A DNA stretch of 63,665 nucleotides, the filler included, from Rozella allomycis CSF55 (lineage: Eukaryota), in assembly GCA_000442015.1 (NCBI GenBank). It is 4 parts of 4 records of this genome, joined end to end, with 100 filler letters (N's around TTAATTAATTAA, not from the genome) between each part and the next. Parts side by side here need not be neighbours in the genome. Positions count along the whole stretch, not along the records: positions 1 to 23,034 come from KE560601.1; positions 23,135 to 30,328 come from KE560612.1; positions 30,429 to 62,411 come from KE560613.1; 1 more part is not named here. One strand, written 5' to 3'. Position numbers and translations under genes: made by a program. Shown here piece after piece: positions 6,001 through 62,411 of the stretch (position 1 is its first letter; the number at the start of each line of letters is the position of its first letter). The notes under the pieces are model-generated. The model worked only from the letters and a program-made list of their open reading frames with translations. It did not search any database and was not told the DNA's origin.

Positions 6001-6050
6001 ACGCTTCAATGTCGAGATATATTTATTTTGTCACACAAGTGTAAACAAAA

Positions 6051-7945: not shown

Positions 7946-7952
7946 ATCGAAC

Positions 7953-8558: not shown

Positions 8559-8572
8559 CTGAAATTTCTAAA

Positions 8573-9781: not shown

Positions 9782-9790
9782 ATAAATTCT

Positions 9791-13175: not shown

Positions 13176-13329
13176 AAAATTACTATTAACATATATATTA
13201 CATTACATGATCTTCACCCATAACGCCATGATTTATTTTTCTTTACGTGAATATTTAAAGTTTTTAACGTACGTGTATATGATCTTTCTGAAGTTCTAAA
13301 ATCCGATGAGGAATGATATACTTATCTGG

Positions 13330-13825
13330 TCACTCCGTGCAAGCGTAGAGGGATCGGTAGATTAGAACCTGTATCATTTGTTACGACTAAAGGTTTTGTC
13401 TTCCTGAGGGTTTCTTTTATTTGGACTTTTAAATGTATCTGTTGTCTCGCCTTTTACCTCAAGGAAAGGCAGCAGGAAACATTGGAGCTCATCTTAATTT
13501 TGCTGCGATAAAAAGGAAGAGAAATACAGCGAAGAACTTTCAGTGTTAGGAGCAGGGTTTATTCCTCTTATTTTTGATGCCTTAGGGGGTTTCCATGATT
13601 CAGCGGTTTCGTGGGCAAAGAAGGTCGCTTTGCTAAAGTCCATTCGCCGTGGCACTTCATTTTCGATAGAAAAAGAGCACCTGATTGAACGCATTAGTGT
13701 ATCCTTAGCGAAATACCTTGGCTTCATGATTTTGTCAAGAGCCCCTGAACCAACTTAGAAATATTCCTCTGGCTTTACATTCGTCTACTAAATAAAATTT
13801 ATTGTTTTCTTTCTGAAAAAAATAT
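13330..13825 (+). mobile_element. 5'-truncated, degenerate non-LTR retrotransposon 3' end (RLE-type, CRE-like)
   Basis: NVSVVSP ... EKYSE ... FIPLIFDALGGF ... IERISVSLAKYLGFMILSR resembles the C-terminal restriction-like endonuclease tail; frameshifts upstream; AATAAA and short A-tract downstream. Confidence 0.6.
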
Positions 13826-14057
13826 ATCATTGTCGACATTTTTGTGGTTATCCGTTATCCGTGGAGAGGGGGTTACTTGATGTTGACAGCAGTTTGATAA
13901 ATTTATTAAGATTTTTGAAGATGGGAACACCTATTAAGAACTAAAGTTCAACATCATCTGGCGACTGGCATATTGTCGATTTGTATTTAGGATGATGATT
14001 GAGTGATCCTGATGTAACTGTGTTTTTGAAATTGACAAAAATTTATTTAACTTATGC

Positions 14058-15212
14058 TTATGACTTAGTGATAATGGATTCATAAAGTCTTAATAAAACA
14101 CTTTCCTTAATGAGATAAGGTACGTCAAGTATGCCAAGCGGGAACCTAGATCCTTGAAACAATGCGTCGGGTAGATTTGCATGTGAGATCTTTTCTTCGT
14201 TTTCTTTCGTGTCATCTTTTACAAAATATTCATCGGGTTTCGCATTTTTAAGAAGAGTCTTTTCGAGAATATCTTGCATTGACATAAATGGCGCTACATT
14301 CATCCAGAGTGTTTCAGCATTTTCGGCATTCAATGCTTTCTGTGCAGCCATTGTAAATGAATGAAGAAGCATTGACAATCCCTTATGGCGAGCTGGGTTT
14401 TCCAAAAGATTTATAGGGTTGCGGAAAATTCCTCTGTTTTCGTAGTAAGAAAACCCTAGAGTGTCTAAATGATCTTTGCAAACGTTTGTGCTTCTAACAA
14501 CCATGATTAAAGGCTTTAGAGAATCTATATATGATACTGGGATTGGTGAATTCATTTCTCCAAAGTTATATTTTCCCGTAATTGGTTCGCTAGAGATATA
14601 TGCCACATAATCTCCGATAGAAAATACAAAACCAGCTACCCCACCGCCTGCTCCATCCAGAATCTCCCTTGTCTTGCCATTGAACTTTTCGTGCCATTCA
14701 GTTCTTCGACTTGCTTGTATTTCCATGTACTTTGTGGCTTTATTACTTGATATGCCAGAAAAATGGATAAAATTTTGTGCAAATGTAGCGTAGTCATACC
14801 ATGATCCTTTGTCATCGTCTATTTTTTCGAATCCTAAATAAACCGTCCCGGTCGGCAGGTTTGCTTCACCTACAAGGACACCTGATGGAAGCTTTCTAAT
14901 ATTAAATCTGGTAAAATAATCGTCTTCGTCCTTTTCATGAGGCACATATGGAACATTATTTATCTTATGTTCATCTTTTCCTGAGATACCTTCATTTTCA
15001 TTAGAACGGTTCGCTGGATATGAATTACTCTTGTTTTGGTTTTGGCCATTTTTTCTTGAACTGCTTTTCTTTTCAAGATGTTTTTGTTCAGGTGATCCAC
15101 CAAAAGACAAAGTAAATGCCAAGGACAAAACTAAAAGCAAAGTTGAAATGAAAACGATAACGTATTTCTTCTCCATAGCGAAGCTGGGACAGTTGGTGGC
15201 GCTGCCCCGCAT
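14058..15212 (-). CDS. Lineage-specific secreted or signal-anchored protein
   Basis: 384-aa intronless ORF, N-terminal hydrophobic segment (YVIVFISTLLLVLSLAFTLSF); true start possibly at MEKKY. Confidence 0.7.
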   Translation of the reverse strand: MRGSATNCPSFAMEKKYVIVFISTLLLVLSLAFTLSFGGSPEQKHLEKKSSSRKNGQNQNKSNSYPANRSNENEGISGKDEHKINNVPYVPHEKDEDDYFTRFNIRKLPSGVLVGEANLPTGTVYLGFEKIDDDKGSWYDYATFAQNFIHFSGISSNKATKYMEIQASRRTEWHEKFNGKTREILDGAGGGVAGFVFSIGDYVAYISSEPITGKYNFGEMNSPIPVSYIDSLKPLIMVVRSTNVCKDHLDTLGFSYYENRGIFRNPINLLENPARHKGLSMLLHSFTMAAQKALNAENAETLWMNVAPFMSMQDILEKTLLKNAKPDEYFVKDDTKENEEKISHANLPDALFQGSRFPLGILDVPYLIKESVLLRLYESIITKS

Positions 15213-15603
15213 AATTATAGAAAGGTATTTTTATCTAACGTATAAATATAGTAAGTAGACCATACCTTGATAATATTCTGAGCATGTTTCGAAAATAGCG
15301 CTAAAGCAAATTCGGGACGTCCCATGAATACGAGCAATATTGACAGAAAATTGAGAAAAATGAATTTACACTTTGCAAAATAGTCTCGTAGTCTGAAGAT
15401 ATTTTCATAAATATTTTATGTAATGCATAGTGATCTTCAAGAATTGATTTATGCACGAAGGATGATTGATCATAGCCGGCGCCGCTAAATTTTGATGTAT
15501 CACAATCACTAAAAAATCCAATTCCATTATTCTAGGTAAATTTTTTATTAATAAACTCCAAGTAAAATTAATAAAGTATTTCTAGCTTTATCAAGCTAAA
15601 AAA

Positions 15604-15628
15604 TGGAGTTGGAGGGTATCGATCCCTC

Positions 15629-15660
<32 letters not shown>

Positions 15661-15676
15661 TCTGAGCTACAACCCC
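15604..15676 (-). tRNA. tRNA-Ala(AGC)
   Basis: GGGGTTGTAGCTCAGATGGTAGAGCGCGCGCTTAGCATGCGCGAGGTAGAGGGATCGATACCCTCCAACTCCA; cloverleaf, G3:U70, T-run terminator. Confidence 0.97.
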
Positions 15677-15771
15677 TATGTAAGCGCTCACAAATATACT
15701 TATGTAAATTTATTCGTTTGTAATTTTCATAAACCGAGAAATTATCTTCTCCAAGTAAATCATTTTGAAAT

Positions 15772-17563
15772 ATGAGGCAATACTCAACATTCCTGGCGAA
15801 TAGTCATTTTAGCAAAACAATTCCCAAAACAAAGCTCTTTCTGAACGGCGAGTTTGTTGACTCGAAGGCTACCCATTGGTTCCCTGTTCGAAATCCAGTA
15901 CTCATGTCTATTAATATTCACATATTAGGCTACCCAAGAAATTGTTAGTTTGACCCCTCAATGCACAAATGAGGAGCTTTTAGAGTCCTCTCGAATCTCG
16001 CAACTTGCTTGTCGCGAATGGAGGAAAACGACTATTCTAACAAGACAAAGAAAAATGTTGGATCTGCAACATTTAATTAGAAATTCTATCGTATAACGCA
16101 CTTAATTGTCTGATAGGATGACATAGCGAAGTCTATTGTTCAAGAGATGGGGAAAACACTGAGTGATGCCAAGGGAGATGTTCTTCGGGGCCTGCGTAAA
16201 TATGTTCAATTTTAGTCACAGAGGTTGTCGAACATGCATGTAATATCACCTCATTGCAAATGGGAGAAACTCTCGAAAATGTATCTTCTCATATGGATAC
16301 CTATACAATTAGGCAGCCTCTAGGAGTAACAGCAGGTATAAAGATTTAGATTAATATTAAAGGCATCTGCCCTTTCAATTTCCCTGCAATGATACCATTG
16401 TGGATGTTCCCTTTATCTATCGCATGTGGAAACACAATGATAATAAAACCATCAGAAAGAGATCCTGGGGCAATGATGATATTAGCCAAACTAGCGAATG
16501 AAGTAGGTATCCCTAAAGGGGTTCTCAATGTTGTCCATGGAGGCAAAGAGACTGTCGAATTTCTCTGCAAAGATAAAAATATAAAGTCCATATCTTTTGT
16601 TGGATCAGATAATGCTGGAAAATACATACACTCCACTGGAACATCTTATGGCAAAAGAGTCCAAGTAAATCGTTTTATTAATTACAATTTGGCCAACATG
16701 GGAGCAAAAAATCATGGAGTGGTCATGCCAGACGCCAACAAAAACGATGCTTTAAATGGTCTTGTTGGCGCTGCATTTGGCGCTGCTGGACAAAGGTGTA
16801 TGGCATTAAGTACTGCCATATTTGTTGGTGAAGCTAAAAACTGGTAAGTCTCTTGTTCTGAAAAATTTGAGGATTCCTGAGTTAGTAGAGCGAGCAAAGA
16901 AATTGAATGTAAATGAAGGGAATGTAGAAGGTGCTGATCTTGGACCAATGATTTCCCCAGAGGCAATAAAGTTGTAAATTAATTATAGGCTAAAACACGT
17001 GCGTGCAATCTGGTTCAATCTGCAGTTGATGAAGGTGCTTCATTACTGTTAGACGGTCGAAAGATTAAGGTAACATTTAACTCGGTCTATAAACAAGGTT
17101 GTCGGGTATGAAAATGGGAACTTTATGGGACCCACTATATTATCAAATGTGAAAGTCTCCATGAAAGCTTACAAGGAAGAAATATTTGCGCCAGTTTTGC
17201 TCTGCATTGAGGTTCCGAACTTGGATGATGCAATTGAACTCATAAATAGAAACCCATATGGGAATGGAACAGCCATATTTACTCAATCAGGTGCGATAGC
17301 GAGAAAATTTCAGACTGAGATCGACGTAGGCCAAGTATAATATAATGTGAATCTTTATGTAGGTGGGTATAAACGTCCCAATTCCTGTCCCTCTCCCTAT
17401 GTTCTCATTTACTGGTTCAAGAGGCTCTATCTGTGGTGATATTAATTTTTATGGAAAATCTGGAGTAAATTTTTATACTCAAATTAAGACAATTACAAGT
17501 CAATGGAAGGTTGAGGATTCCTCCCATACAAAATCGGCCTTGCACATGCCTGTTATGAAATAA
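15772..17563 (+). CDS. ALDH6A1: Methylmalonate-semialdehyde dehydrogenase
   Basis: [65 protein letters not shown]; 9 small introns incl. one GC-AG and one probable GT-TG. Confidence 0.97.
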
Positions 17564-17656
17564 AAATATTCTTTTTGCTTAAACAATTGGACTATTATTT
17601 AAAATGCATCAAATCATTAATTTTACAATCAATTTATAAATTTCGAATTATCTAGA

Positions 17657-20126
17657 ATGTCGCTACGAAGGAAACCAGTAGACTTTGATGCAGTTTGGGG
17701 TATTTTCGAAAAGAATATAACCAAGTTATTTGAATCCAGTGAAGAAGGAACAGTCCAGGCCATGGACCTTACACAGTATTTGAGTATAAGCACGTTAATA
17801 GAATGGTGTATGAAATGTGTAACGCATATCCAAACTCTTTTTTCTCAGAGTTGAAGAACAAGATTTCGAATTTTCTTTCAGCACAGGCTATCAAGCAAAG
17901 AAAAGTAATAATGATTGCAATACCTACAATGCAAGGCTATAATGAAAGATGTGGATATGATCAAAAAGTATTCAAACGAGTGGGATGTGTATTATAATGC
18001 ATTGTGTTTGTTAAATACTGTGTGTTCGTATTTGAACAGGTGCATTTTGATGAAAAAGGAATCAGATGGGGCAGGATCAAGTGGGCCAGATTTCTATACT
18101 ATAGATATTGTAAACCAATTATGTTCGTATTAGTAGATTGGAAAGAATATATGGAGGGAAAATGTCATTTTATGGATTAAAAGAAACTTTTCAAACAAGT
18201 TGGTGTCGCTTTTACTGTCGTACATTGAAGATGATCGAAGTTCTGGATTTAAAGATAGCAAGCATGCAAATTGTGCTATTAATTCATTTGGTAATCAGCG
18301 ATGAAGTTTTTAAAGTAGTTTTGAGTGATAATGATCCTTTGAACTCTATTAGATTTTACATTGATGAATTTGAGAATTTGATGCTTCAAGAAACTGAAAA
18401 GTATTATAAAAGCGAAGGTAAGACTAATATAACAAATATGAATATTGAATCATTTATGGATGTTGTAAATTGAATTTTTGTGATGGAATTAGGCTTTGAG
18501 AAGATTGGCAGAGGAAAAGGAACGAGCAAATCGATATTTTAAGTTTTCATTTGACAAAGTTGTAGAAGTTTATATTGATCAAGTTATTATTACGAATCAA
18601 AAGTTTATTCAAGAAGAATTTCAGAAATTTGTCGCTAATGATTCGTTTATAGAAATGGAAAAGGCTTATAATTTGTTAGTTCTTGTGAATGAAGGGATTA
18701 ATCCCTTGTTGATTAAATTAAAAGATCATATAGTTAAACTGGGAAGAGAAATCCTGGGAGGGCTTGGCGATGTGGTTATTAAAGATGCTAAACCATTTAT
18801 TACAGCAATGTTAAACTTGCATAATAAATATGATTATCTTGTTTCGCAACATTTTAATAAAGATACCAATTTTGAAACAATATTAGACAAGGTAAACTAC
18901 TTGACAATATTTAATAGGCATTCAGAGAAATAATTAATGACAGAAAAACTAACAAATTTATAAATGCGCCAGAGAATTTAGCTCGCTTTTGCGATACCAT
19001 TTTAAAGAGGAATTCTAAAGTTTCTCTGACAGAGGCGGAAATTGAAGAAAATTTGAGCAACGTGGTAAATTAAATCCTTCAGTATAATATTTGATTATAA
19101 TATTTAAATATGTGGATGACAAGGATGTATTTTCGCAATTTTATTCAAAATTTTTTGGAAAGAGACTAATTCAAAAGAGTTCTGTTTCAATGGAATGTGA
19201 AGTTGGCATGATAACAAAATTAAAAGTATTCAGATTACTAAATTTAGTAAAGGATGTTTGTGGATTCGAATATGTTTCCAAATTACAGAGAATGTATACA
19301 GATATAACAGTTAGTGAGACAATGCACGAAAAATTTCTTCAAAATTACAAATCCTCTCTTTCAAGTAATCTCAATTCTAATCTATTTTAGATGATTTTGA
19401 GTTTGCTATATTAACCGCAGGATCATGGCCAAGCGCATATCAAAACAATCAAGAGTTTATCCCTCCCTTTGAACTTGGCCAATGCATTAAACAATTCCAT
19501 GATTTCTATGAAAAAGAACACAGCGGTCGAAAGTTAACTTGGCTTTACAATCAATCTAGATGTGATTTAAAATTGACTGGGTTTGATAAACGCTACGAAC
19601 TACAAGTCTCAGTCTTTCAATCTTCAATATTACTAACACTAAACAAAGAAGGAAAGATACAATTACATCAAATAGCCGAAGAAACAAAACTCCCTATTCA
19701 CGAAATCAAAAGGAATATCAAACCTTTATTAGAATTAGGAATTATTCTAGAGAACGAAAATAATCAAGAAATTTCAATAAACGACAACTTTTCCCACAAA
19801 AGAGTAAAAATCAAGGTTCCTTCTATTGCCATCAATGAACCAAATGAAAAGGAAAGAGATTCGGTCAAAAAAGCTGTCGAAGATGACAGAAAAATGTACA
19901 TACAAGTAATAACTTATAACTGATAAAATAGGCTTCCATTGTTAGGATCGCTAAAGCAAAAAAGGAAATATCACACAATGACCTTGTTCAAGAAATTATA
20001 TCGCACGCAAAACCCCAGTTTTTACCCTCCATTGCGTTAATCAAATCTATGATTGAACATTTGATTGAAAAACAATTTCTTGAAAGGCATCCGTCAGAAA
20101 AAGGAAAATACATTTATGTCGCCTAA
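17657..20126 (+). CDS. CUL2: Cullin-2
   Basis: N-terminus MSLRRKPVDFDAVW and VYEMCNAYP resemble CUL2 (MSLKPRVVDFDETW, VYALCVAYP); FKYVDDKDVF, SGRKLTWL, IVRIAK neddylation site, ends YIYVA; 10 introns. Confidence 0.85.
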
Positions 20127-20263
20127 ATTAATAAATTCTTCAATTTTTAAATTAAACGTATTTGAATTTTGAAGTTTTCAAATTAATGTCATTCAACAAC
20201 AATTAGCTTTCGGTACACTATCTGTTTCATTTTGTAACAATCGTAGAGGCAATATTAGGAACA

Positions 20264-20336
20264 GGGGTTGTAGCTCATTTGGTAGAGCGCGCGCTTCGCA
20301 TGCGTGAGGCACGGGGTTCGATTCCCCGCAACTCCA
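20264..20336 (+). tRNA. tRNA-Ala(CGC)
   Basis: GGGGTTGTAGCTCATTTGGTAGAGCGCGCGCTTCGCATGCGTGAGGCACGGGGTTCGATTCCCCGCAACTCCA followed by poly-T. Confidence 0.97.
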
Positions 20337-20610
20337 TTTTTTTTTACATTTTTCTAAACGACCCAAAAAATCTTTATTATGTGAACGAATGAAATCATTC
20401 CTCAATCAAGAGGCCATTTATTTCATCGTTCGAACCTTCCCAATCTTCTTTGATCAAGTTTCAACCCTCTTTGAAGTCTTCTTTTTGTTCATTAAAAAAA
20501 TTAGCGCATATAATTCAAAGTTTTAATGACCGCAGTAATTCATTAAATCAACGAGAATATTTAAATGTAAAGTGGCAATGAAGAAAGTACTAATCTCTAA
20601 AAATACAGTT

Positions 20611-22270
20611 CTATTTATTAACAGTCATTTTTAACATTCCAGTTTTCTCCAATTTAGCCATCAAATCAAGCAACTTCTCTTCTTCCATTTTCCTCTCTTC
20701 ATCAGTCAAACCTTCTAACGGATCTTCTTTCACAGTTGCTTTTATTGTTCCAGATATGGCATCATATGCTTTAACTTTTCCCGTTTTGTCCTCTTCTAAA
20801 ATGACTTCTTCGTCAGGTGACAAATCTCCTGAAAAACTATATGGCTTTTGAGTTTCAGACATTAATCCATTTTCCATTAAGAATCCAGCCGCGTTGCCAA
20901 AACCAACGTGAAAGTTCATTCGATTTACTTTCTCAAATGTACATAATGGTTACCATTCTTTTTACATAATGTATATATTAGGCCACCGGCGTTGGTTTTT
21001 ACAACGTCTTGTATAGACGAGAGGCCGCGAACAATTAATGCTTTCAAACTATCACCTACATGTAAAGGGATATCTCGATTTCTTTTTTTTAGTAAATTGA
21101 CTTTACATTTTGGACGGCAGCACTTCTCTTCGTATCTGCTTTCTTAATGTATAATCAGTATCACATAAAGCAGAAAGAACAGAACAGCAAACTGAGATTG
21201 ATTGCATGGCGCTTTCATTAGGGAAAAATGATGTTACATATCAATAGAGTTTTCCAAATTGACCAGTTGTAAATGTAGAAAGTTTAGCAGTAAACAAATT
21301 CTTAAGTATTTAATCTTTGGGAATTTCTGCAGTAAAGAATGGCCATTGAAATATTGTAGCTGGTAGTTTACGTGGCGAGATTGGTAATTCAATGATAAAA
21401 TCTAAAATTGTCTGGACTGGAATGTTCATTAATAAATTTGATAAATGCACAACAGTTGATAAACAAATTGATGGGGTATTTCCATTACTACCGCGTTCAA
21501 ATATTGCCAATGAATTGAAGATCATTTCCAATAGTCTTAAATTTTACTACACCTAATAAATACTCTGAAGAAGCTTCAATTTTAGTGACTCTAGAAAGTG
21601 TGAAAATAGTTTTGCAAACTTCCTCGATTTCTGATTAGATAATATATTTTCCTTTGAATGTTTTATTAATATCTTTAACGTAACACAGTATTTATTACTA
21701 TTTACTTGTAACATTTGTTCCTTTAATTCTTTTTCCTCTTCATATGAAAGGTGTTCGCTCATCAGTCCGGTGGCAACGAAGATCAATTTTAACTAAAATA
21801 TTGACACATTGTTCTTTGCACAGCTGTTCTGGCAAATATATTCAATGGAAATTACTTTAAGACCTTTAAGTAGAGATTTTAGACCACCGATTTCAATAAA
21901 ATTTGTGCGGCATTGTTCGCTTAAATAGATCATGTTGTATAATGCCTTGTAGGATTCTTCTATTGTGAGATCGTTCATTTCTGTTTCTCTAGCGATGACT
22001 TTAATAATAATATCAATTGTCTAGATAAATGCATTAAATTTGAAACACCTTAATTTCATAAAACGGCTCACAACCATCGATTTCTCTTGCCAAAATTTTA
22101 ATGGATTGAAAGCATCTTTTTGAAACTAGAACTAAAAAAATTAACGGATACCATTTTCATCTCCTTGTTTCAGTAATTGCACAATATTGCCACACCCCTC
22201 TTCACATTTGGGGTAAAGTGTTCGTCTAAAAGGTTTGAAATCCTTTCCCAAGTTAAGATGAACACTCTTA
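20611..22270 (-). CDS. RIC8: Ric-8/synembryn G-alpha chaperone/GEF (5' end at N; apparent frame problems near 21630 and 21790)
   Basis: HVGFGNAAGFL, YDAISG, LTDEERKMEEEKLLDLMAKLEKTG C-terminal signatures; IKILARE near N-terminus. Confidence 0.8.
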
Positions 22271-22403
22271 NAAGAAGATATTACATTAAAAGGAAGACGA
22301 AAAAAGGCCAGAAAAGCATTGGAAATGGATGAATAAATGATTATTATTTATTAAAATTGTATCGTTATTAATAGATTGTTGTGTTACCTCAGTGTTTTAA
22401 AGA

Positions 22404-22525
22404 AGGGTGATATCCTTACAAAATATAGGGTGACATCCTGACAATGGGGTGCGATGACCCGACAAAATGCTCTCTTTACGTGTAGGGTGACGAGCCACCA
22501 AATGAGGGTGACATCCTTACATCCA
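22404..22525. repeat. Array of short GGGTGACATCCT(T/G)ACA-like motifs; probable DNA-transposon subterminal repeats
   Basis: agggtgatatccttaca, agggtgacatcctgaca, agggtgacgagccacc, agggtgacatccttaca within ~120 bp. Confidence 0.55.
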
Positions 22526-23034
22526 TCCAATCCGAGAAAAGCCTTGATCTACATGTGCAAGACAAGGTAAAACAGATGCATTAGCATTCAAGCAGCGAGG
22601 ATGACTAGAACGTGAGGCATTCATTACAGCAGGNAAAATATCTATGAAGCCATACTTAACTTAAAAATAATTCCACCGAGCTGAATTTTTATGATTGATT
22701 TGCGGTGCTACCAAGCAAAGAATTGCTGGCCTAGAGTCAGAAGTAAAGGATTTGGAGGGTAGAATAAACAACTATAAAGAGGAAAATATTGTGGAACAGT
22801 ATTGTTTATTAATGATTTTTAGTTTAGCACGAACGTGTCAAGGAAAAGGAGGAACTACTAAGTACTAGTGAGATTGATTCTCTTAAAAGCATGCGATTAG
22901 ATTTTTGTGATTTAACAAGTGCGAAAATGAAGGATTTATAATAAACTGGGTTAAAATAGTTTATTTTTTTTAACTTTGCGCTGTCATTTGCTTCAATGGA
23001 ATAAAAATGATAATCTTTCCAGAGTCTTGAATAT

Positions 23035-23134
23035 NNNNNNNNNNNNNNNNNNNNNNNNNNNNNNNNNNNNNNNNNNNNTTAATTAATTAANNNNNNNNNN
23101 NNNNNNNNNNNNNNNNNNNNNNNNNNNNNNNNNN
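23035..23134. other. Artificial scaffold linker
   Basis: N44-TTAATTAATTAA-N44 (stops in all six frames). Confidence 0.97.
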
Positions 23135-23902
23135 GAGAAAATATCCATCGCCTTTTTCAAATCAAATCCATACGCCGCAGATTCCTTATGCGAAGATGGG
23201 TTGAAAAACCTTTCAGGGGCAATACAACACGACCTTTTCTCCGAAGCATCAAAAAACAAATAAAAATCCGATGGATTATTCTATTTCAATTAATACATTT
23301 ATATACTTCAGGCAGAAATGTAGGCTTGTAGTTTCCTATATCTGACAAGTACGCCCATCCGCCCGTAGAAATCAATACATTTTCACTTTTAATATCCCCA
23401 TGCACAATCTAATATTACACAAAAGCAATAATTACATTCTTATTGTGCAGCGAAGACACAGCTTTCAATAACTGAAACAGAATCCATTTCTTTTCAATCT
23501 TCTCCAAAAACGGCCTCGTTCCAAGCCGATTCTCCAAATTAAAAGAAATATAGCTCCGCTCCATAATAAACATGTACTCATCTTCAACAAACGGCGAACT
23601 TAAAACATTCCAACCATGAATACACTCACACTGACCTCTAACCCCATACACACAAACTTTACTATTGTATTTCGCCAGAATCTCTGATACATCTATACTG
23701 CTCTTGGACGGTTTCATGAATATTTTAACAAGCTTGTCATTCGACATGCAAAACGATTTTGTTAATCGGCCTCGTGCTTTCCTTTATTGTGTAGATTTAA
23801 TGAGTACGTTTTGGTAATGTGCGCTGGCGACATCTTGTCATTGATTATTTCGTATGGCGAGAGCAGTAATTGGATATCTTGATATGAAAGGGAATTTCCC
23901 AT
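23135..23902 (-). CDS. VPS15: VPS15/PIK3R4 5' portion (kinase-like domain), copy A, truncated at linker
   Basis: MGNSLS myristoylation start, LVKIF, NLENRLGTRPFLEKIEKKWILFQLL, HGDIKSENVL, YKPTFLPE-NNPSDF, CIAPERF. Confidence 0.9.
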
Positions 23903-24001
23903 TTTTGACTTTTCCAAGTATAAAGTAGTGAAGCACTGAATAGGAATGGAAAACTGGTATAAAATGGAAAGTTTGTAAAGATTAAAGTTTATTGAATGTT
24001 A

Positions 24002-24295
24002 AATCACCGAAAATTTCCGAAAATTGAAAATCTCGGAAAAAGATTGGGCGACAATAAACTATCAGAAACCGACTTCAATAATAGATATTTTTTATTTAAC
24101 CCCTCAACCCTAACCCTTTACCCTAACGAACCCTAACACTACCAACCCTAATCCTCCCTAACAACCCTAAAAACTCCCTAGCAACCCTTACATTCCCCGA
24201 AAATAACACTTTCGATAAATTGTACTTTAAGAAACCACAGTCCACAGAGGAATATTTTTTTGGAGATTTTCGGTTTTCGGAAAATTTCGGTGATT
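24002..24295. repeat. ~39-bp inverted repeats enclosing a degenerate CCCTAA (telomere-like) array at ~24096-24190
   Basis: Left aatcaccgaaaatttccgaaaattgaaaatctcggaaaaa vs reverse complement of right aatcaccgaaattttccgaaaaccgaaaatctccaaaaa; inside caaccctaaccctttaccctaacgaaccctaacactaccaaccctaatcctccctaacaaccctaa. Confidence 0.85.
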
Positions 24296-24614
24296 CAGGT
24301 CGGCATGGCAAACTCCCCAAAAAGTAATGTTTGAGTTTGTGAAAATGAAAACACGCAATTTCGGGCTCAAGGGAGTGGAGTGGACATGTGGCACGTGATG
24401 CAACTGACCAGGGTTGTCCCGTGATGGCGTTCTTCAAACTTTTGAGTGTTTTGCGCTGGTCAAAGTGAAAGATCTACAATATGATTTTTCAGGCGTGATT
24501 ATAAATATGATTGAAAAATACTGAGCATATGTAACAGTAACATCTTCAATGTAAATGATTTATTCACCTCATAGAATGCCTCCCCGTCCAGTTAACGAGC
24601 ACTGCGAGACTTGC

Positions 24615-26114
24615 TTAAATTTCAAAAATCTCTTTGTAGAAGTTTATGGCTTCCTGGACATGTGAAATATCAACTTCACTCGAATATGAAATTTTCGCAA
24701 AACCATGTGCCAGTCGTATCACAGTTCTGGCCTCTCTAAACCCAAATTTTTTAGACTAAATAGTATAAAATAGAAATCATTACCAAATACATGTTTTGCC
24801 TCAGTTTAGACAACTCAGTAGTGAGACGCATTTTCATTTCGTCGCCAATTCTCGTCTCAAAATTCTTCATTTTCTCAATTTCTGGCATTAAATTGATATC
24901 ACGTTCCATAATGTTCCTTTCATCCTCGTTGAACTTTTCTCTAACCAAGGCATTAGCTAATTGTCTGTCCCCAAAAAGATTGTATTTGTCAATAGATATG
25001 ATCACTAGATCAAATCTTGACAACAACGCTCTATGTACTCCAATATTCTGCACTACGTTCATCAGAGGATCAAATACAATATTCCTGAAGTTCGCTGTGG
25101 CACATACAGCAACATCCGCAGGATATTGTTGGTGAAAAAAATGTTTATTTATTGTCACCGTTTTTTGTTCCATAGCCTCGTGAAGTACGCCTTGCAGCCC
25201 ATCCGGCATTTTGTCCAGTTCGTCTATTTCTTGCAATCAATTTCATTACCAATTAATACGTGCTTTTTGTTCCCAAGGACCAAAGCTCCGGGCTCTATGT
25301 TCGAGTTCACCACAGAAGCAGTCAAGCCAGCTTCAGTCGAAGCGGGACCAGTTACTGACACACATGGGACAAGGCATTCCATTTGTCTAGTTTTGCAAAT
25401 AAATTATAAGTACCGTAACAATTTGGACTTAGCGGTGCCTGGATCCCCTACATGTAGCACATGCAATCTACATATCGCGCTCATGAGCAGAGCCTTTTTA
25501 ACCTTGTCCATCATGACGACCTCAGGACAAAGCATGTTCACCATGTCGGCGAGATTTCTGTGCTTCTGAGGCTCCTGTAGAGGATAGTGTACTTGTTCAC
25601 TAGCCTCGTACAAGCAACAGAAATCCGTCTTGCTTACGTAACCCACAAAGGACATTTCTTTTCCTGCAGAGCCCTGAAAGTCACTATGCAATATTAATTG
25701 GACATACTGATTAAAGTTTTAATGTTTGATTACTTTATCACATGATAAGAGAGTAATTTCTTGTGTTGGCATTCTATCGCGAACAAAGATCGTCCCAACG
25801 CTAACAATCTTCCCAGTGATGACTCTCAGTTTTTTCAAATCCCTTTCTTTCACTTTTGATTTAATTTTGCATAAAGACGGAAGATTTTTAAGCCTTACTT
25901 TGACCCTCTGCCAAAGTGCCCTACCTATTTCGAAGTTTTCGATCAAGGACATCGCTAAACCTTGATCGATCGAAAATATTCTGGACCAGTCCAAACAATC
26001 ATCCTCCGCATGGGCTAAGGCTCTTTCATATTGTTCAGAAACCTATTGGAGTCGCAATGAATGGATTACTTCATTTAGGTTGACTAATTGTATGTTTGAT
26101 GCTAGTTGGTTCAT
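24615..26114 (-). CDS. Short divergent MCM-family AAA+ helicase (~450 aa)
   Basis: HVLHVGDPGTAKS Walker A, STEAGLTASV, IEPGALVLGN, LIDELDKM Walker B (after 26-nt intron), LHEAMEQ, ALLSRFDL arginine finger; 5 GT-AG introns. Confidence 0.85.
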
Positions 26115-26857
26115 GCCGGGGTGTCTAACCCGCCGAAAAGGACTAAGGAAATTCATTGAATTGATCGTCCCTTCTTTTTCCAGTATTAGCAAAATATCAC
26201 TGAGTCACTGACTAAAATGTAACCACATTTTATCAATTAATGGTAAAATAAAGAATGATTCTTGATTTCTCGGGAAGGATTTTTATAACGAGTTTAGAAA
26301 GTTAACCATTAAGATAAATGCGAATATATAAAATATATTATAATGACTGGAATTAATTCCCATTTAATGTTTTACAACATTTTTATATGACTTTATTCCT
26401 TGGGCGTAATGTCGCCAACCTTTCAGATTGAAAATCACCTTTATTCCCTTTCGACTCAGCATTATTGTTCGACACTGCATTGTTGTTTTTAAACTCAAAC
26501 CTTCGCTTTGCCGGAAGACCCATTGTCCAGAAATCGCCTTCATCTATAATATTTTAGTTCCGTTGTATTTTCACTGCTATAAGGTGATCATGTAGCATCT
26601 TGAGGACTCGGGATATTATGATCAGCTTATCTTTTCAGCTTTCATATTAAAAAATAGTAAAATGGAGTATCTTGGCTTAGACCAAGAACATTTTGCTCTA
26701 GATGAACACGCCATGGTGGTATATAAAAGCATCTACGTAAGACTAAGAGAACCGGCTGCTGTATGATGTCACACATGGGTTTACATTAGATCGGAAACTG
26801 GTAATTGTCTAGTTGTCGTCCAATAACTCTCTCGCGTGAATGCACGACAAAAAACTA

Positions 26858-27274
26858 TCAACACAGAGTGCATTCATTGCTTCCATGATCTCTGTCGTGA
26901 TCCTTTCCGTGGTCTCTATCGCGGTCTCTTCTATGGTCTCTGTTACGGTCTCTTCTATGATCTCTTTCATGATCTTTTCCATGACCATCTAGTTTATTAT
27001 CATTTCCTTGTCCTTTACTTCTTCTGTCGCCATCGCGAGCTACATCATCATACTCATTAACACATTGACTACTATATCCGTCACAAACCTTTCTTCTTTT
27101 ACATTTGGGTATCGCAGTGACTGTAGGGAGGGACTCTGTCTTGGTTACAGTTTCACAAAACCCAGTTTTCGTAACGACCGGAGGAGTTTCAACTGTGACC
27201 TCAGTAGTCATAACTGGAGAACAAGTAAGTTTCACAGTTTCAGTAACTGGAATTAAGGTTTCTTGGACAGTGGA
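26858..27274 (-). CDS. 3' part of Thr/Val/Pro-rich, RDH-repeat protein (likely secreted/cell-surface), 5' end lost at N
   Basis: TVQETLIPVTETVKLTCSPVMTTEVTVETPPVVTKT... then DHGKDHERDHRRDRNRDHRRDRDRDHGKDHDRDHG 12-nt repeats. Confidence 0.55.
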   Translation of the reverse strand, partial: STVQETLIPVTETVKLTCSPVMTTEVTVETPPVVTKTGFCETVTKTESLPTVTAIPKCKRRKVCDGYSSQCVNEYDDVARDGDRRSKGQGNDNKLDGHGKDHERDHRRDRNRDHRRDRDRDHGKDHDRDHGSNECTLC

Positions 27275-27275
27275 N

Positions 27276-30200
27276 CAGTAAGTTTGTGTGTATGGGTTTA
27301 GAGGCCAGTGTGAGTGTATACATGGTTGGAATGTTTTGAGTTCGCCGTTCGTGGAAGATGAATACATGTTTATTATGGAGCGGAGCTATATTTCTTTTAA
27401 TTTGGAGAATCGGCTTGGAACGAGGCCGTTTTTGGAGAAGATTGAAAAGAAATGGATTCTGTTTCAGTTATTGAAAGCTGTGTCTTCGCTGCACAATAAG
27501 AATGTAATTATTGCTTTTGTGTGATATTAGATTGTGCATGGAGATATCAAGAGTGAAAATGTATTGATTTCTACGGGCGGATGGGCGTACTTGTCTGATA
27601 TAGGAAACTACAAGCCTACATTTCTTCCTGAAGTATGACAGAAATCAATTAAATGAAATAGAATAATCCATCTGATTTTTATTTGTTTTTTGATGCTTCG
27701 GAGAAAAGGTCGTGTTGTATTGCCCCTGAAAGGTTTTTCAACCCATCTTCGCATAAGGAATCTGCGGCGTATGGATTTGATTTGAAAAAGGCGATGGATA
27801 TTTTCTCGTTGGGGTAATTTTATTGTTTAGGGTTAAATTGATGTGTAGCTGCGCATTTATTTTTGGAGGAGCCGTTGTTTACGCTGTCTAGTTTGTCAAA
27901 GTATTATTCTGGTGAGATTGATGTATCAGAGAGACTTAATAAAATAGAGGACGAGGGTGTTACAGTATGAGATTGAATATTCAAAGATAGAAAATGATTT
28001 TGAATATGATTGATCCATTTCCTGAAAACAGACTTTTGATTGATGAATATTTTGAGGTTTNTTTGGGGTAATTTTATTGTTTAGGGTTAAACTGATGTGT
28101 AGCTGCTCATTTATTTTTGGAGGAGCGGTTGTTTACGCTGTCTAGTTTGTCAAAGTATTATTCTGGTGAGATTGACATAACAGAGAGACTGAATAAAATA
28201 GAAGATGAGGATGTTACAGTATGAGATTGAATATTGAAAGATAGAAAATGATTTTGAATATGACTGATCCATTTCCTGAAAACAGACTTTTGATTGATGA
28301 ATATTTTGAGGTTTTTAATTCAATTTTTCCAGATTATTTTTATAATTTTTCTTTTGAGTACATTGGATCTTTAATTGCGTCGAAAACAGTAGAAACTTTG
28401 GATGAGAAAATTCACAAAATATTTAACGATTTTGATAAAATTTTATGCTCTTTAAATATTTCTATTGATGATGTTAAAGTTGAATGCTATGAAATTGAAA
28501 TTCCAAATGTTAAAATACCACGAAAACGTCAATTGAAGTCTGATGGAGTGTTAATCTTTTTGAATGTTATTTTTTCGTTTCTTCCATTGTTGAATAACTT
28601 GGATACAATTGAAAAAGCTGCTGAGATTATTTTTGTGCTTGGATTGTTAGCGAGGGATGAAATAATCCTTGAAAGAATCGTTCGTTATCTGGTTTTGATT
28701 TGTAACCACACGAATNTCAACGATTTTGATAAAATATTATGCTCTTTAAATATTTCTATAGATGATGTTCAAGTAGAATACTATGAAATTGAAATTCCAA
28801 ATGTTAAAATACCTCGAAAGCGTCAATTGAAGTCTGATGGAGTGTTAATCTTTTTGAATGTTATTTTTTCGTTTCTTCCATTGTTAAATAACTTGGATGC
28901 AATAGAAAAAGCTGCTGAGATTATTTTTGTGCTCGGATTGTTTGCGAGGGATGAAATAGTCCTTGAAAGAATCGTTCGTTATCTGGTTTTGATTTGTAAC
29001 CACACGAATGAATCTTATTTGATATCCAACTGTGTTTATTATATAACATGTTTAATGGAAAGTATTGAGAATGTTCCAAAGTTTGAAGTTGACTTATTTT
29101 TGGAATATTTGTTTCCCGCCCTTTCTCATCTAGTTTCCCATCCAGATCAATCAGTGAGATTCTGCATGGCCAAACATTTACCCTCTTTAATTAAAGTTGC
29201 AGAGAAATTTTTAAATATTAGTGATGAAATAAACAGTTCAGTTAGTAGCAACAGATTTTCTCAGTCAGATTTGTTTTCAGATGATTTTAGCATTAATCGC
29301 CCATTTGATTCTGGTGTTGGACATTTAAGACAGCAAGTTGAAGAGATGATTCAATTGCTTGTTGTTGACAATGATGTTAACGTTAAAATTAAAGTTGTTG
29401 AATCGCTTGGATTTTATTTCAACTTTTTCACGAATCAAAAGACTAGAGACACTATAATTTCACATGTTATAACGTTTTTAAATGAACGGAAATGGGAATT
29501 GAGAAGCGCTGTGATATTCTCATTGAAAGATGTTGCAAACTTTGTTGGTCAATCAACATTTGAACAAATATTTTTGCCTGTAATTCTACAAGGGTTATTG
29601 GGTAATAAGATTGAATGAAATGAATAGATGAGGAAGAGTGTGTGATAATAACAACAATTAAAACTTTGTCTCATCTTTCAACTAGTTTGAAACCTTTGGT
29701 GTTTAAGAAATTCATCAATAAAGTAACACCCTTGTTGGTTCATCCTGATTTTGAATTAAGAAATTGTAAAATTCAAATTTAAACATTAAAATTAGCTGCG
29801 ATTGAATTTATTTTAAATTTGTATGAAAATTGTGATTCAATATTCAAACTTTGCTTGGTTATTCCTTGTTTAGATTTATATTTATCAAAACCTTTAATCA
29901 AGATAAATTTTGAATTAATTCATGAATTTTTAATTCCACCAGTAGAAATTTAATTGATTTCATTCATTAAAGATTCCAACTGAACTTTACAATTATGCAG
30001 CTCAATGGTATTTGAAATCTAAAGATTTGTTCTTGATGGATGATGAATCAGAAGAATACAGGCGAATGATCACAATGGGAATGACGCCCCTGCAAGAGAA
30101 ATTTCTTCTCTTGTTGAAACCTTTTTATAGAAAGCCTTCATCACTAAGTTTAGAAACTGGATTTATTTCACTTGATCCTAAAGACATTAAATCGTTTGAC

Positions 30201-30328
30201 TCTTTTGATTACGAATTAAACACTCTGGTAACAAATGTGTATAAGCTTGAAAGACTATTGGCAACAACAATTTAAACTGCACAGTCAAATTCAAGGAAAG
30301 AGCAAATTTTAATGATATTGAAGATTAT
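27276..30328 (+). CDS. VPS15: VPS15/PIK3R4 copy B (kinase C-lobe plus HEAT repeats), with internal duplications at N 28061 and 28716
   Basis: Near-identical to copy A over the overlap; DIFSLG-CVAAHLFLE; DEIILERIVRYLV, LFLEYLFPALSHL, IISHVITFLNERKWELR HEAT motifs. Confidence 0.9.
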
Positions 30329-30428
30329 NNNNNNNNNNNNNNNNNNNNNNNNNNNNNNNNNNNNNNNNNNNNTTAATTAATTAANNNNNNNNNNNNNNNN
30401 NNNNNNNNNNNNNNNNNNNNNNNNNNNN
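30329..30428. other. Artificial scaffold linker
   Basis: N44-TTAATTAATTAA-N44. Confidence 0.97.
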
Positions 30429-30440
30429 CCCACTCACAAA

Positions 30441-30848
30441 ATGGCTGGAGGAAAAGGAGGAAAATCTGCATCTGCATCTCAAACAAAAGCAAAATCTCGT
30501 TCATCAAAGGCTGGTCTTCAATTTCCAGTTGGTCGTGTTCATCGTTTCTTGCGTAAAGGAAACTACGCTCAACGTGTTGGTGCTGGAGCTCCAGTATATC
30601 TTGCTGCTGTTCTTGAATATTTGACTGCTGAAATTCTTGAACTTGCTGGAAACGCTGCTCGTGATAACAAGAAATCCCGTATCGTTCCAAGACATCTTCA
30701 ACTCGCCATCAGAAACGATGAAGAATTGAACAAATTACTCGGAAACGTCACTATTGCTTCTGGTGGTGTTCTTCCAAACATCCACGAAGTTCTTGTTCCA
30801 AAGAAGAGCAAGTCTGACAATGCTGGATCTCAATCACAAGAATTATAA
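30441..30848 (+). CDS. H2A: Histone H2A with SQEL (H2A.X-type) tail
   Basis: [60 protein letters not shown]; intronless. Confidence 0.99.
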
Positions 30849-30870
30849 GTGATTTAATTTATCACAAACC

Positions 30871-30886
30871 GGTCTTCTTAAAGACC
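30871..30886 (+). promoter_or_regulatory. Histone 3'-UTR stem-loop (SLBP-type)
   Basis: GGTCTT-CTTA-AAGACC 6-bp stem, 4-nt loop, flanked by CAAACC and ATCA, 22 nt after the H2A stop. Confidence 0.8.
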
Positions 30887-30909
30887 ATCATTCTTAAAGA
30901 TGTTCAATT

Positions 30910-32020
30910 TTAACTTTTGTTTTTATTTAGTTTCGATTTCGCCATTTGATTTAAGTAAGATGAATATAAGCTATTTACAACAATCTGATCGAACTATGTT
31001 TATCCTTAGTTGTGTTATTACGTTTATTAAATCAATAATTCTTTTTTTAAACTCTTCTTTGGTCAATGTAGCGGAACTTTCAGAGTGCTTAATTAAGTGT
31101 TCCACCGGTAAACTTGTTGATTGAAGTAATTTCGCAATAGGTCTGTTTCCCTTTCTTCTAGTGATTCTACGTTTTGTCTGCGATACATCGGTTATAGAAT
31201 TGTCAGATACATCAGAATCCGTTTCACTTGATTCCAGTGCGGACGGCGGGTTTCTGGTTGCCGAAACAATACCTCGATTATTAAGTGGCAAGTCAGATAT
31301 AGGTTCGACTGTTTTCAGATCTCTTCCAGGAGTAATGACGGATCTCGCTTTTTCATTTCTCAAAGCCGCCCTTCGGAACAATTCTTCAAGATCATTCGAT
31401 GCACAATTAACGCCTTTAGGTGTCGTCATTACATTGCTATGATTCGCCCTGGCTAGTTGCGGGCTTTTCTGAGAAAAGATCGGTGGTCCCTTTGCAACAT
31501 CCCCAGAAAATATACTCTTAGTGGGTGTTTGTGGTTTAATTTCAGTAGCTAACATTGAGAACCTTATTTTACGAGAAGTTATAACGATACTTTTGAAACA
31601 AAGATGATATTTTTTCCCGTTCGTATTGATCAAAAAACCATATCCCATAAATATCTATCATTTAGATAATTCTCACATACCATTTTGGGAGCGAAATATT
31701 ATATAAGCATCAGTTAATTGAAGATCTATTTGTGACGAAAATGTTCCCTTGAAGTTTGTGATATTTAGTCTATTCATTATAAAAAATCCGTAGTAAGGAA
31801 AAGTCACTCGTCTATAAACAAATAAAGAGCCTTCAATATCTTTTTTATACTATTTCGTATACTTTTAGTGTTATACCCAAGTTGATGCATCTTCGTCAAA
31901 CTGGTACAAGACAACGTGTGAACTCATATCTATAATTTCTGCTGCTTCATCGTCATATCTTTTAAGAACTTTCATATTGATCTGTAAGGCCTTTTCTTTT
32001 ATCTCTTTTGTACTCTTCAT
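30910..32020 (-). CDS. DCP1: mRNA-decapping subunit Dcp1 (EVH1 plus C-terminal trimerisation helix)
   Basis: INMKVLKRYD..SSHVVLYQF..W-YKKDIEGSLFVYRR..YYGFFIMNRLN..DIYGIWF; C-terminal LTKEEFKKRIIDLIN..LYSSYL; 4 introns. Confidence 0.9.
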
Positions 32021-32160
32021 CACGGAAATTTCTGAGATTCTTTCCGGCGAAAGCAAAATCCCATTACGATAGGATTAAATAAGAGATTCATTAAATTAAT
32101 TGCATTTATCTTATAAACAAAATATATTCCTGAAAATTATAGAACATTTAAAAGTTATTA

Positions 32161-32966
32161 ATGCAATTAATAGACGACGAAAGTTTGCAGAGCGCTATTT
32201 CATTCCTTAATAATTGTAATGACGAGCTGGATTGGGGTGAAGATAGTGTTCCGTTGCTATTCTTGGGTAAGCTACTATATTTTGGCCATTGATAGACACT
32301 GTGAATAGGGAAGTTCTAGGCCAGTTTCCGCATGAAATGTTTACCAGCTGGGACATTATCATCGATTCTCCCAAACCACTTGAGACAATCAAACGTATAC
32401 TAAAAGAGGGTGCAAGTGGGGAGGAGGAAAAGGTAATAGAATATCATATGTACATATATGAATATCATCAAAGAAATTCAAACTTGGAAAAGCTTTCCTA
32501 AAACTGTTACAGCAGATATTGTTCGAAATGTTATTGATAAATACCCTAAAATCGCCGCGGAACTTATACTAAAAGCAGTACAATCGGAAAGGGCTCCTGA
32601 ATTTTACAATCTTTTGATAAATCTTGATATTAGTCTTCATTCCTTGGACATGATGAAGCAATTGCTATTCAAACGCAGTATATATGTCCCTATTGAAACT
32701 GCGTCGCTCTATTTAACCAATGGTATGGACTTCATAAGGTTAATAGCGGAAGAATCGAAACAGCACCGTTCTGTAAGATTGGTAATATTTATAATCTAAT
32801 TAATTTGATGATGTGCTTATTTCTTAAATCGGTTTTACCCGAATTCAATGAAATATTGCAGGACATATTTTTGGAATTGGAAACATTCGCTCTTGAATTC
32901 TCTAGAGTTAAAGAGGCGGCCGAAATATTTCAATATATAAGTTTGAAAAAGAACCAAATAAAATAG
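32161..32966 (+). CDS. CNOT11: CCR4-NOT subunit 11
   Basis: LINLDISLHSLDMM, LYLTN, QHRSVRL-MCLFLKS, ELETFALEFSRVKEAAEIF match the NOT11 C-terminal domain; 3 introns (two probable GT-TG). Confidence 0.85.
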
Positions 32967-36652: not shown

Positions 36653-36726
36653 TGTTCTGATCCAGGATCGAACTGGAGACCTTTCGCATGTAAAGCGAAC
36701 GTGATAACCAACTACACCATCAGAAC
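36653..36726 (-). tRNA. tRNA-Val(TAC)
   Basis: GTTCTGATGGTGTAGTTGGTTATCACGTTCGCTTTACATGCGAAAGGTCTCCAGTTCGATCCTGGATCAGAACA, poly-T after. Confidence 0.96.
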
Positions 36727-62345: not shown

Positions 62346-62411
62346 TGGGGGATAGCAAAAAGTAAAGTAAACAAACAAAGAATGTCTTTTAGGGTACCGA
62401 TAAGAAACATT

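Follow-up and report, generated by a model that had tools for sequence, protein, structure and literature searches.

Some spliceosomal introns of Rozella allomycis probably end in TG. Judging from sequence comparisons in the window (the whole 63.7-kb stretch of draft genomic DNA analysed here), we give a probability of about three in four to the reading that these are constitutive U2-type GT-TG introns, that they make up ~4% of the introns present, and that their 3' site is set mainly by distance. Four TG ends are pinned by homology, in the genes for methylmalonate-semialdehyde dehydrogenase (MMSDH), a CUL2-like cullin, VPS15 and CNOT11. The introns are 27, 29, 27 and 29 nt long, respectively, start with GTAA donors and finish in TTG, TTG, TTG and ATG, none of them carrying the canonical 3' AG. 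At each of the four sites the alignment to homologues is gapless only when the intron ends at TG.

The intron population of the window

Introns were counted with our own dynamic-programming gene finder, run on this single draft window. It found 107–121 GT..AG introns of 24–32 nt with a mode of 26–28 nt, in agreement with the first-pass annotation, in which about 110 introns had been read and nearly all described as short GT..AG. The full set of models contains 121 such introns (26 nt, n = 28; 27 nt, n = 33; 28 nt, n = 21; 29 nt, n = 17), with the acceptor triplets TAG (69), AAG (33), CAG (14) and GAG (5); in models of at least 150 aa, GT-AG accounts for 107 of 113 predicted introns. Donors read GTAA in 53 and GTAT in 20 of 79 reference introns, and the A+T content of 106 GT-AG introns has a median of 76% and a minimum of 59%.

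These 106 introns also contain 83 internal AGs that are left unused, 16 of them only 3–6 nt upstream of the used end. Since internal AGs are so often skipped, the rule for the 3' site is not ‘first AG’. The earlier idea of a distance of ~27 nt fits both the skipped AGs and the lengths, which are held to 26–29 nt. No enriched, position-specific branch-site motif was found in the 121 introns, and with no such motif definable the distance model is left without an anchor point. An Rfam scan of the window found no snRNA and only three tRNAs, and no splicing-factor gene lies within the 63.7 kb.

Probable TG-ended introns in conserved genes

The MMSDH intron occupies positions 16665–16691 on the plus strand (27 nt, GTAAAT..TTG, phase 0). 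It is a multiple of three in length and has no in-frame stop, so that its translation is possible in principle. Compared with human MMSDH and six fungal homologues, the segment when read through is an exact nine-residue insertion between two invariant blocks. The protein is 72–77% identical to its homologues in other fungi and aligns without gaps to six of them once nine introns are removed. The same gene holds a GC..AG intron of 26 nt (16963–16988, plus strand), whose removal is the only one giving a gapless alignment to the six fungal homologues; its detection indicates that the approach picks up other intron classes as well. The public model P0006 keeps 16665–16691 in frame and loses 13 residues at 16963–16988; overall it carries a nine-residue insertion and two deletions.

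In the cullin gene the intron spans 19065–19093 (plus strand, 29 nt, GTAAAT..TTG), and its flanking exons abut at residues 418 and 419 of human CUL2 (query position 47 corresponding to residue 416). In blastp comparisons with two chytrid cullins the TG model scores 426 and 312 bits, against 403 and 289 bits for the in-frame AG alternative 19065–19123, which is the one used in the public annotation. That public model, P0191, is missing 10 conserved residues. It also retains an ordinary GT..AG intron of 27 nt at 19226–19252 (plus strand), seen as a nine-residue insertion relative to Cullin-1; being in frame and stop-free, this intron is invisible to frame-based gene finding.

The VPS15 intron lies in the kinase domain at 27814–27840 (plus strand, 27 nt, GTAATT..TTG, phase 2). 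Exon 1 ends at L226 of yeast Vps15 and exon 2 begins at C228, residue 227 being a split Gly codon. The match of exon 2 has weak E-values (0.06–0.9), yet 7 of 7 hits are VPS15/PIK3R4; as a query of 27 residues exon 2 gave no PDB hit, and with 41 residues it gave hits. From the donor at 27814 every shorter end meets a stop. A second in-frame TG follows 3 nt on, at 27843.

The region around VPS15 is poorly assembled. A direct repeat (27809–28060 and 28063–28314; 252 nt, 95% identical, 12 differences) flanks a single N and contains the same intron again at 28068–28094 (plus strand), here ending in CTG, and the TG is kept in both versions. The first-pass annotation had listed this as a second copy. 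In all likelihood the tandem duplicate is not a second gene copy but a contig overlap left unmerged, or a second haplotype.

In CNOT11 the intron at 32782–32810 (plus strand, 29 nt, GTAATA..ATG) separates exons that abut at residues 133 and 134 of human CNOT11 (8bfh_A), and its removal yields a gapless alignment to the human protein. Against a profile of 44 homologues the model ending at 32810 scores 113.5 bits, that ending at 32807 scores 107.0 bits and the best AG model (32723–32763) 79.6 bits. In-frame TGs flank the end in tandem, at 32807 and 32813. A second GT..TG intron in this gene, at 32433–32460 (plus strand, 28 nt, GTAATA..ATG, 79% A+T), restores the frame and is probable; it falls in a poorly conserved stretch and is not pinned by homology. 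Its rival, a GC..AG intron at 32412–32439, gives the same protein length and scores 109.6 bits compared with 113.5 bits for the TG model, with an A+T content of 50%, under the 59% minimum of the 106 AG introns. Of the six TG sites listed earlier, four are pinned by gapless homology, and that at 32433 is only probable.

Taken together, the five candidates resemble the other introns of the organism in everything except the acceptor. Their donors (GTAAAT, GTAAAT, GTAATT, GTAATA and GTAATA) match those of the other introns, and their lengths (27–29 nt) and A+T content (78–86%) lie inside the range of the GT-AG introns of the window; the strong GTAA donors and modal length first reported for the TG sites are therefore borne out, with 27–29 nt and GTAA throughout. 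Without intron removal CUL2, VPS15 and CNOT11 run into a frameshift or stop, and their downstream exons are still open and conserved. U12-type introns have the donor consensus (A/G)TATCCTT, and none of the five has this extended donor. On sequence grounds we file them as a variant of U2-type spliceosomal introns, not as standard members.

Given that TG makes up 0.068 of the dinucleotides inside AG introns, the chance that four homology-pinned ends would all be TG is p ~2e-5. No other non-AG 3' dinucleotide recurs in the window. The TG-ended share in conserved genes is ~4% (about 4 in 100 introns), a rate that rests on 4–5 introns and agrees with the initial view that TG acceptors recur at a few percent.

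The gene finder, given a flat penalty for non-AG ends, picks arbitrary in-frame ends and was used only to flag breaks that lack an AG solution. The remaining AG-less breaks are a GC-AG intron, antisense false models or an artefact beside N: the break at 16974 resolved as the GC-AG intron 16963–16988, those at 14445(+), 33732(+) and 37574(−) belong to antisense or false models, and that at 61888(−) adjoins N with a duplicated flank. The break at 22799(+) is, on reading by eye, a 29-nt GT..AG intron. A composition scan for hidden in-frame TG introns was non-discriminating, its top hits at 17465 and 38852 being plainly coding; further candidate hits were at 29821 and 60960. Scanning metagenomes with the MMSDH exon returned 80 loci, with a best identity of 72% and no close Rozella relative among them for comparison of the orthologous intron. 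Among the sequencing runs searched, no RNA run was found to cover the locus; run X10 gave no match, and matches in the RNA run X11 (four pieces of ~20 nt from two contigs) are spurious and have no bearing on expression.

Alternative explanations

An AG-only spliceosome would have to use the nearest in-frame AG, for example 19065–19123, or retain the intron as in MMSDH, and produce proteins with deletions or a nine-residue insertion. Such in-frame AG alternatives are present for CUL2, VPS15 and CNOT11, the MMSDH segment is stop-free, and the public annotation follows this pattern in models P0191 and P0006. The first-pass annotation had stated that those nearby AGs it tested for CUL2 and VPS15 lead to a stop or frameshift. 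In-frame AGs do exist, however (19123 in CUL2; options of 78–111 nt in VPS15), and all of them, like those for MMSDH, delete conserved residues. More generally, any in-frame GT/GC..AG end costs conserved residues or exceeds the length class, the alternatives measuring 58–161 nt against 24–32 nt in the 121 AG introns. Splicing by AG alone would imply that ‘intronic’ DNA encodes, in frame, 10 residues matching the most conserved cullin motif, and that ~20 residues aligning to human CNOT11 are intronic, which is unexpected for intron sequence. The MMSDH insertion would sit between two invariant blocks, and homologue scores fall by 23 bits for CUL2 and by 34 bits for CNOT11. We consider this explanation quite unlikely.

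A different possibility is that TG is used only as a minor or regulated option next to unproductive splicing or retention, in the manner of the human tandem TG sites, the 4% being leaky and not constitutive sites. Tandem in-frame TGs at two sites (27840/27843 and 32807/32810/32813) speak for this, and a study of microsporidia reports that their short introns are spliced at less than 20% (PMC6349667). Against this, AGs in the allowed length window never yield a productive mRNA at the four pinned sites, so that the TG product would be the only functional one. Minor use of TG is accordingly unlikely in our view.

Could the TGs be sequence or assembly errors, or mark a mutant haplotype of a heterozygous locus whose true or other allele has AG? 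The window is part of a draft scaffold with 275 N and unmerged overlaps at 95–96% identity. It was compared with DNA contigs of runs X1 and X2, which may be related to the source data of the window assembly. The two sets differ from the window at many places between 20800 and 23000, including the RIC8 stretch (20800–22200), where an in-frame stop at 21793–21795 is among the differences, and contigs drop rare variants; RIC8 was left out of the TG tally because of these disagreements. Over MMSDH and CUL2 the agreement is close. X1 contig record 7 spans 16365–20135 with only two differences (19763 and 19770) and shows both the MMSDH and the CUL2 TG, and X2 contig record 18 spans 18041–19872, differs at the same two positions only and shows the CUL2 TG; among the contig matches listed, the MMSDH TG is confirmed in X1 only. 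With k-mer depths of ~285–595 for these contigs, assembly error is unlikely at MMSDH and CUL2, and the contigs are not copies of the window, since they differ from it elsewhere. The duplicated VPS15 stretch has the TG in each of its two versions. Moreover, errors striking at random would not replace the acceptor A by T, and by T alone, in 4–5 of ~115 introns while leaving coding intact. An origin in error or haplotype is thus highly improbable.

Gene decay, in which AG-to-TG mutations disabled splicing of pseudogenes or of genes dispensable to a parasite, is suggested by the life style of Rozella as a reduced intracellular parasite. It would require the same transversion in four unrelated housekeeping genes, whose other introns are intact, whose frames are open on both sides and whose conservation is high (72–77% in MMSDH), and we regard it as very unlikely.

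A proposed distance-based acceptor and its implications

If the constitutive GT-TG reading is right, a Rozella intron would consist of little beyond a GUA(A/U) donor followed by an A+U-rich body, with the length held nearly constant at 26–29 nt. The position of the 3' cut would depend mainly on how far it lies from the 5' splice site and branch region, with position -2 checked so weakly that U is tolerated. The RNA would then be cut at the TGs, UG being the last two nucleotides of introns that are removed constitutively. In yeast spliceosome structures the last intron G pairs with the first intron G in the second catalytic step, and it is this last G that would be kept. Whether a few percent of Rozella introns across the genome routinely and constitutively end at UG, with a fixed ~27-nt ruler from the 5' splice site and no proofreading of position -2, is on present sequence evidence about an even bet. 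Loss of proofreading at -2 could reflect lost or changed AG-reading factors on the lineage toward the reduced microsporidian spliceosome; the first-pass annotation had suggested an altered U2AF1 or Prp8 as a possible cause.

Comparison with known systems helps to place the class. TG acceptors in human are reportedly rare and adjoin a canonical AG. Szafranski et al. (2007, PMC2374985) describe 36 verified alternative TG 3' splice sites in human U2-dependent introns. The Rozella introns are like these in having a U2-type GT donor and a TG terminus, with the last G kept and only position -2 changed. Unlike in the human tandem arrangement, TG would here be the only productive acceptor, in ~4 of 100 introns of one window, and no productive AG lies in the allowed length window: the in-frame AG nearest the TG is 30 nt downstream in CUL2 and 51 nt downstream in VPS15 and in the CNOT11 site termed CNOT11b.

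Tiny, length-constrained introns are found in Paramecium (~25 nt) and Stentor (15 nt). As in these ciliates, introns in Rozella vary little in length, are rich in A+T, begin with GTA and are often hidden because their length is 3n; the branch consensus, weak or absent in such systems, may be so in Rozella too. To our knowledge the introns of Paramecium and Stentor keep the 3' AG, and repeated TG ends have not been described for them, in contrast to the Rozella window, where such ends recur. Abundant non-canonical introns are known from Oikopleura, Fritillaria and euglenids and, at the donor, from dinoflagellates. The likeness here is a percent-level departure from GT-AG under the major spliceosome; there the variation is mostly at the donor or at both ends, whereas in Rozella only acceptor position -2 changes, and only to T. 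The GC-AG class, known everywhere, is a change at the donor end, and the TG class differs from it in lying at the acceptor. Rozella allomycis is, as the first-pass annotation assumed, a fungus, if in the broad sense; public proteins under its name are 99–100% identical to the window. A fungal intron median of 29 bp has been reported among single-cell fungal genomes that include Rozella (PMC8042348). A literature search, which did not extend to the 2013 genome paper or to supplementary tables, turned up nothing on TG acceptors or on which splice sites Rozella uses.

A practical consequence concerns annotation. AG-only gene predictors mis-model genes with TG introns, and the errors are already present in the public MMSDH and cullin models. 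Phylogenomic studies make wide use of proteins from Rozella, and for this reason a few percent of mis-spliced introns in its gene models would affect many alignments. The 3' AG is among the most constant signals of eukaryotic gene expression. If routine use of UG across the genome is true, there would be hundreds of UG-ended introns, and Rozella would be the first eukaryote known in which major-spliceosome introns with a non-AG acceptor form a regular and productive class. Essential genes with no productive acceptor other than UG would also open the way to direct tests of second-step site selection and of how far a length ‘ruler’ can stand in for sequence. Rozella is a key early-branching lineage beside Microsporidia, in which the splicing machinery is strongly reduced, and relaxed reading of the 3' site could be a step toward that reduction.

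Ordinary introns and gene models of the window

One translated exon of the window is 100% identical to P0006, the public MMSDH (methylmalonate-semialdehyde dehydrogenase) model of Rozella allomycis CSF55, and another is 99% identical to the R. allomycis cullin model P0191, which identifies the fungus of the first-pass annotation as Rozella, a cryptomycotan parasite that adjoins Microsporidia. G+C content is 32-39%, and the draft sequence contains 275 N, with gap stretches at 23035-23134, 30329-30428 and 62412-62511 and several single Ns.

With a codon-usage score trained on 11 long open frames, we wrote a Viterbi gene finder that connects frames across short introns. Allowed only GTA..AG, it used 93 introns with a length peak at 26-29 nt; its refined models contain 121 GT..AG introns of 24-32 nt, of which 28, 33, 21 and 17 measure 26, 27, 28 and 29 nt, respectively, and which end in TAG (69), AAG (33), CAG (14) or GAG (5). 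Models of 150 residues or more contain 113 predicted introns, 107 of them GT-AG, and the donors of 79 reference introns include 53 GTAA and 20 GTAT. The A+T content of 106 intron bodies is never below 59% and has its median at 76%, and a search of the 121 GT..AG introns for a position-specific branch motif found none. What marks an intron here is a GTA(A/T) donor, a body rich in A+T and a length kept within a few nucleotides, and the earlier description of the window's ordinary introns is correct. The last 14 kb are occupied by a dynein heavy chain gene (49485-63665, minus strand) with 12 predicted GT-AG introns, and this gene continues past the window end.

Two tRNA-Ala genes, Ala(AGC) at 15604-15676 (minus) and Ala(CGC) at 20264-20336 (plus), explain an 80-nt inverted repeat; a tRNA-Val(TAC) lies at 36653-36726 (minus).

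Probable TG-ended introns within conserved genes

With non-AG ends permitted at a flat penalty, a few breaks stood out for which GT..AG introns offered no solution. Three of them, 14445(+), 33732(+) and 37574(-), are antisense to a better gene, 61888(-) lies beside an N with its flank duplicated, 22799(+) proved on inspection to be a 29-nt GT..AG intron, and 16974 corresponds to a GC..AG intron of 26 nt (16963-16988, plus) in MMSDH. What was left are exactly the sites for which a TG end had been proposed.

In MMSDH, the 27-nt intron 16665-16691 (plus) ends in TTG. The reading frame crosses it without a stop, and relative to human MMSDH it adds exactly 9 residues where two invariant blocks meet. 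With nine introns removed (seven GT-AG, one GT-TG and one GC-AG), the complete gene gives a 514-residue product that is gapless at every junction against six fungal homologues, and TTG is the only end of the 16665 donor that gives a gapless alignment. P0006 keeps these 27 nt, loses 13 conserved residues by mis-splicing at the GC..AG intron and is also 3 residues short at the 17335 intron. Elsewhere in the window, a possible second GC..AG intron (41326-41351, minus, 26 nt) was the gene finder's choice, replacing a 44-nt GT..AG, once GC donors were permitted.

In the cullin gene CUL2, the 29-nt intron 19065-19093 (plus) also ends in TTG. Residue 47 of the exon 18918-19064 aligns with residue 416 of human CUL2, so that this exon ends at 418; the exon from 19094 begins at 419, and the removal is therefore exact. 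The nearby AGs had been said to fail here, yet one in-frame AG does exist: the 59-nt intron 19065-19123, which P0191 uses; this public model is without ten residues that correspond to the cullin motif of highest conservation. In comparisons with two chytrid cullins, 426 and 312 bits were reached by the TG model, 403 and 289 by the 59-nt AG model, and 397 and 281 by an annotation-like model. The same alignment uncovered an ordinary 27-nt GT..AG intron (19226-19252, plus) that is invisible to frame-based finding because it is in frame and stop-free; P0191 keeps it as 9 residues. Such hidden introns of 3n length are probably common and missed by frame-based finding.

In the kinase gene VPS15, the intron 27814-27840 (plus, 27 nt) has a TTG end. 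In yeast Vps15 numbering, L226 is the last residue of exon 27662-27811, and C228 (residue 246 in human PIK3R4) is the first of the exon read from 27842; residue 227 is a Gly codon split by the intron, so 27814-27840 is removed. Matches of exon 2 have weak E-values (0.06-0.9), and all 7 of 7 are to VPS15 or PIK3R4. From the donor at 27814 shorter ends run into stops, and a second TG 3 nt further is also in frame. The first-pass annotation had listed 28068-28094 (plus, CTG end) as a second copy. It lies within a 252-nt direct repeat of 95% identity flanking a single N (27809-28314). A single N with direct duplicates on its flanks is also found at 28716 (28425-29009, 291 nt) and, as inspection showed, around 61816, and identity between such duplicates is ~95-96%. 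These look like overlapping contig ends left unmerged or head-to-tail joins of two haplotypes; so read, 28068-28094 is not an independent gene copy and would show one site twice, with a TG end in both versions. An inverted repeat (23135-23659 and 27280-27807, 96-98% complementary) holds the first exons of VPS15 in either orientation and, adjoining the N stretch 23035-23134, is probably an assembly mis-join or chimeric piece.

Of the two introns proposed in CNOT11, 32782-32810 (plus, 29 nt, ATG end) is fixed by homology. The exon 32461-32781 ends at L133 of the human chain 8bfh_A, and the sequence read from 32808 places its first two residues opposite 133 and 134, so the gapless end is 32810. 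A profile of the homologues 340-520 residues long (44 of the 70 found) gives 113.5 bits for this end and 107.0 for 32807; the highest-scoring AG model, 32723-32763, which the gene finder itself had chosen, reaches 79.6. The other intron, 32433-32460 (plus), restores the frame in a weakly conserved stretch where rivals come within 2-4 bits, the closest being a 28-nt GC..AG intron (32412-32439) of equal protein length. That rival has 50% A+T against 79% for the TG intron, and none of 106 AG introns falls below 59%; composition thus favours TG, and we count the site as probable.

In-frame TGs stand in tandem, 3 bases apart, at 27840/27843 and 32807/32810/32813 (plus), resembling NAGNAG acceptors and possibly yielding one-residue alternative products. 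Two further in-frame, stop-free GTAT..TG segments of intron-like composition, 29821-29853 in VPS15 (plus, 33 nt) and 60931-60960 in the dynein gene (minus, 30 nt), are either hidden TG introns or coding.

Recurrence and presence in independent contigs

TG makes up 0.068 of the dinucleotides inside AG introns, and four alignment-fixed ends would all be TG by chance with a probability of ~2e-5. No other non-AG end dinucleotide recurs among the window's introns. Four pinned sites and one probable site among ~115 introns correspond to 3.5-4.4%.

Contigs of two DNA sequencing runs from different studies, X1 and X2, were compared over 3035-23034. X1 record 7 (3771 nt) spans 16365-20135 without gaps and differs only at 19763 and 19770; X2 record 18 spans 18041-19872 with the same two differences. 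Because the contigs match there, the TGs of MMSDH and CUL2 are confirmed in X1 and that of CUL2 also in X2, the MMSDH TG being in X1 only among the matches listed. Both sets differ from the window elsewhere and so are no mere copies of it, and they may share a source with it. An assembly error is an improbable source of these two TGs.

A minus-strand RIC8/synembryn-like gene (~20611-22347), named from the first-pass annotation and an ORF reading, has exons that do not chain. Its region disagrees with the X1 and X2 contigs in numerous positions, and at its in-frame stop, 21793-21795, both read other letters. At 13040-14373 the summed X1 and X2 contig depth is ~10x that of the neighbours, with several joints and loose ends, and this is probably a repeated element.

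Placement of the 3' splice site

The 106 introns skip 83 internal AGs, 16 of them 3-6 nt upstream of the used end, so AG is not taken at first sight. For the TG introns, an AG end compatible with the conserved protein is absent from the permitted range of lengths, and it is from this conservation that we infer splicing at TG. The 3' site would then be placed by distance, with U tolerated at -2 if the last G is present. In the yeast post-catalytic spliceosome this last G pairs with the intron's first G, and A at -2 touches the branch adenosine; U at -2 would alter just the latter contact.

Fungal intron medians range from 29 to 197 bp, and very short Rozella introns are at least implied (PMC8042348). 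The main text of a survey of non-canonical fungal splice sites contains neither Rozella nor GT-TG (PMC7072748), and full-text literature searches, short of the 2013 genome paper and of supplements, found no account of TG acceptors or of how Rozella uses its splice sites.

The original observation is confirmed with three corrections, namely the VPS15 duplicate, the AG alternative in CUL2 and the unpinned CNOT11 site. Its interpretation is supported in part: the recurrence of TG ends and the tightly held length stand, splicing at TG is deduced from protein homology, and the mechanism, with a suggested change in U2AF1 or Prp8, is proposed. Human TG sites are rare and adjacent to AG. They are known as alternative sites, of which 36 are verified (PMC2374985). 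In contrast, TG in the window appears to serve as the sole productive site, and does so in a few percent of introns. We put the probability at about three in four that these are constitutive GT-TG introns of the major type, positioned by their length.
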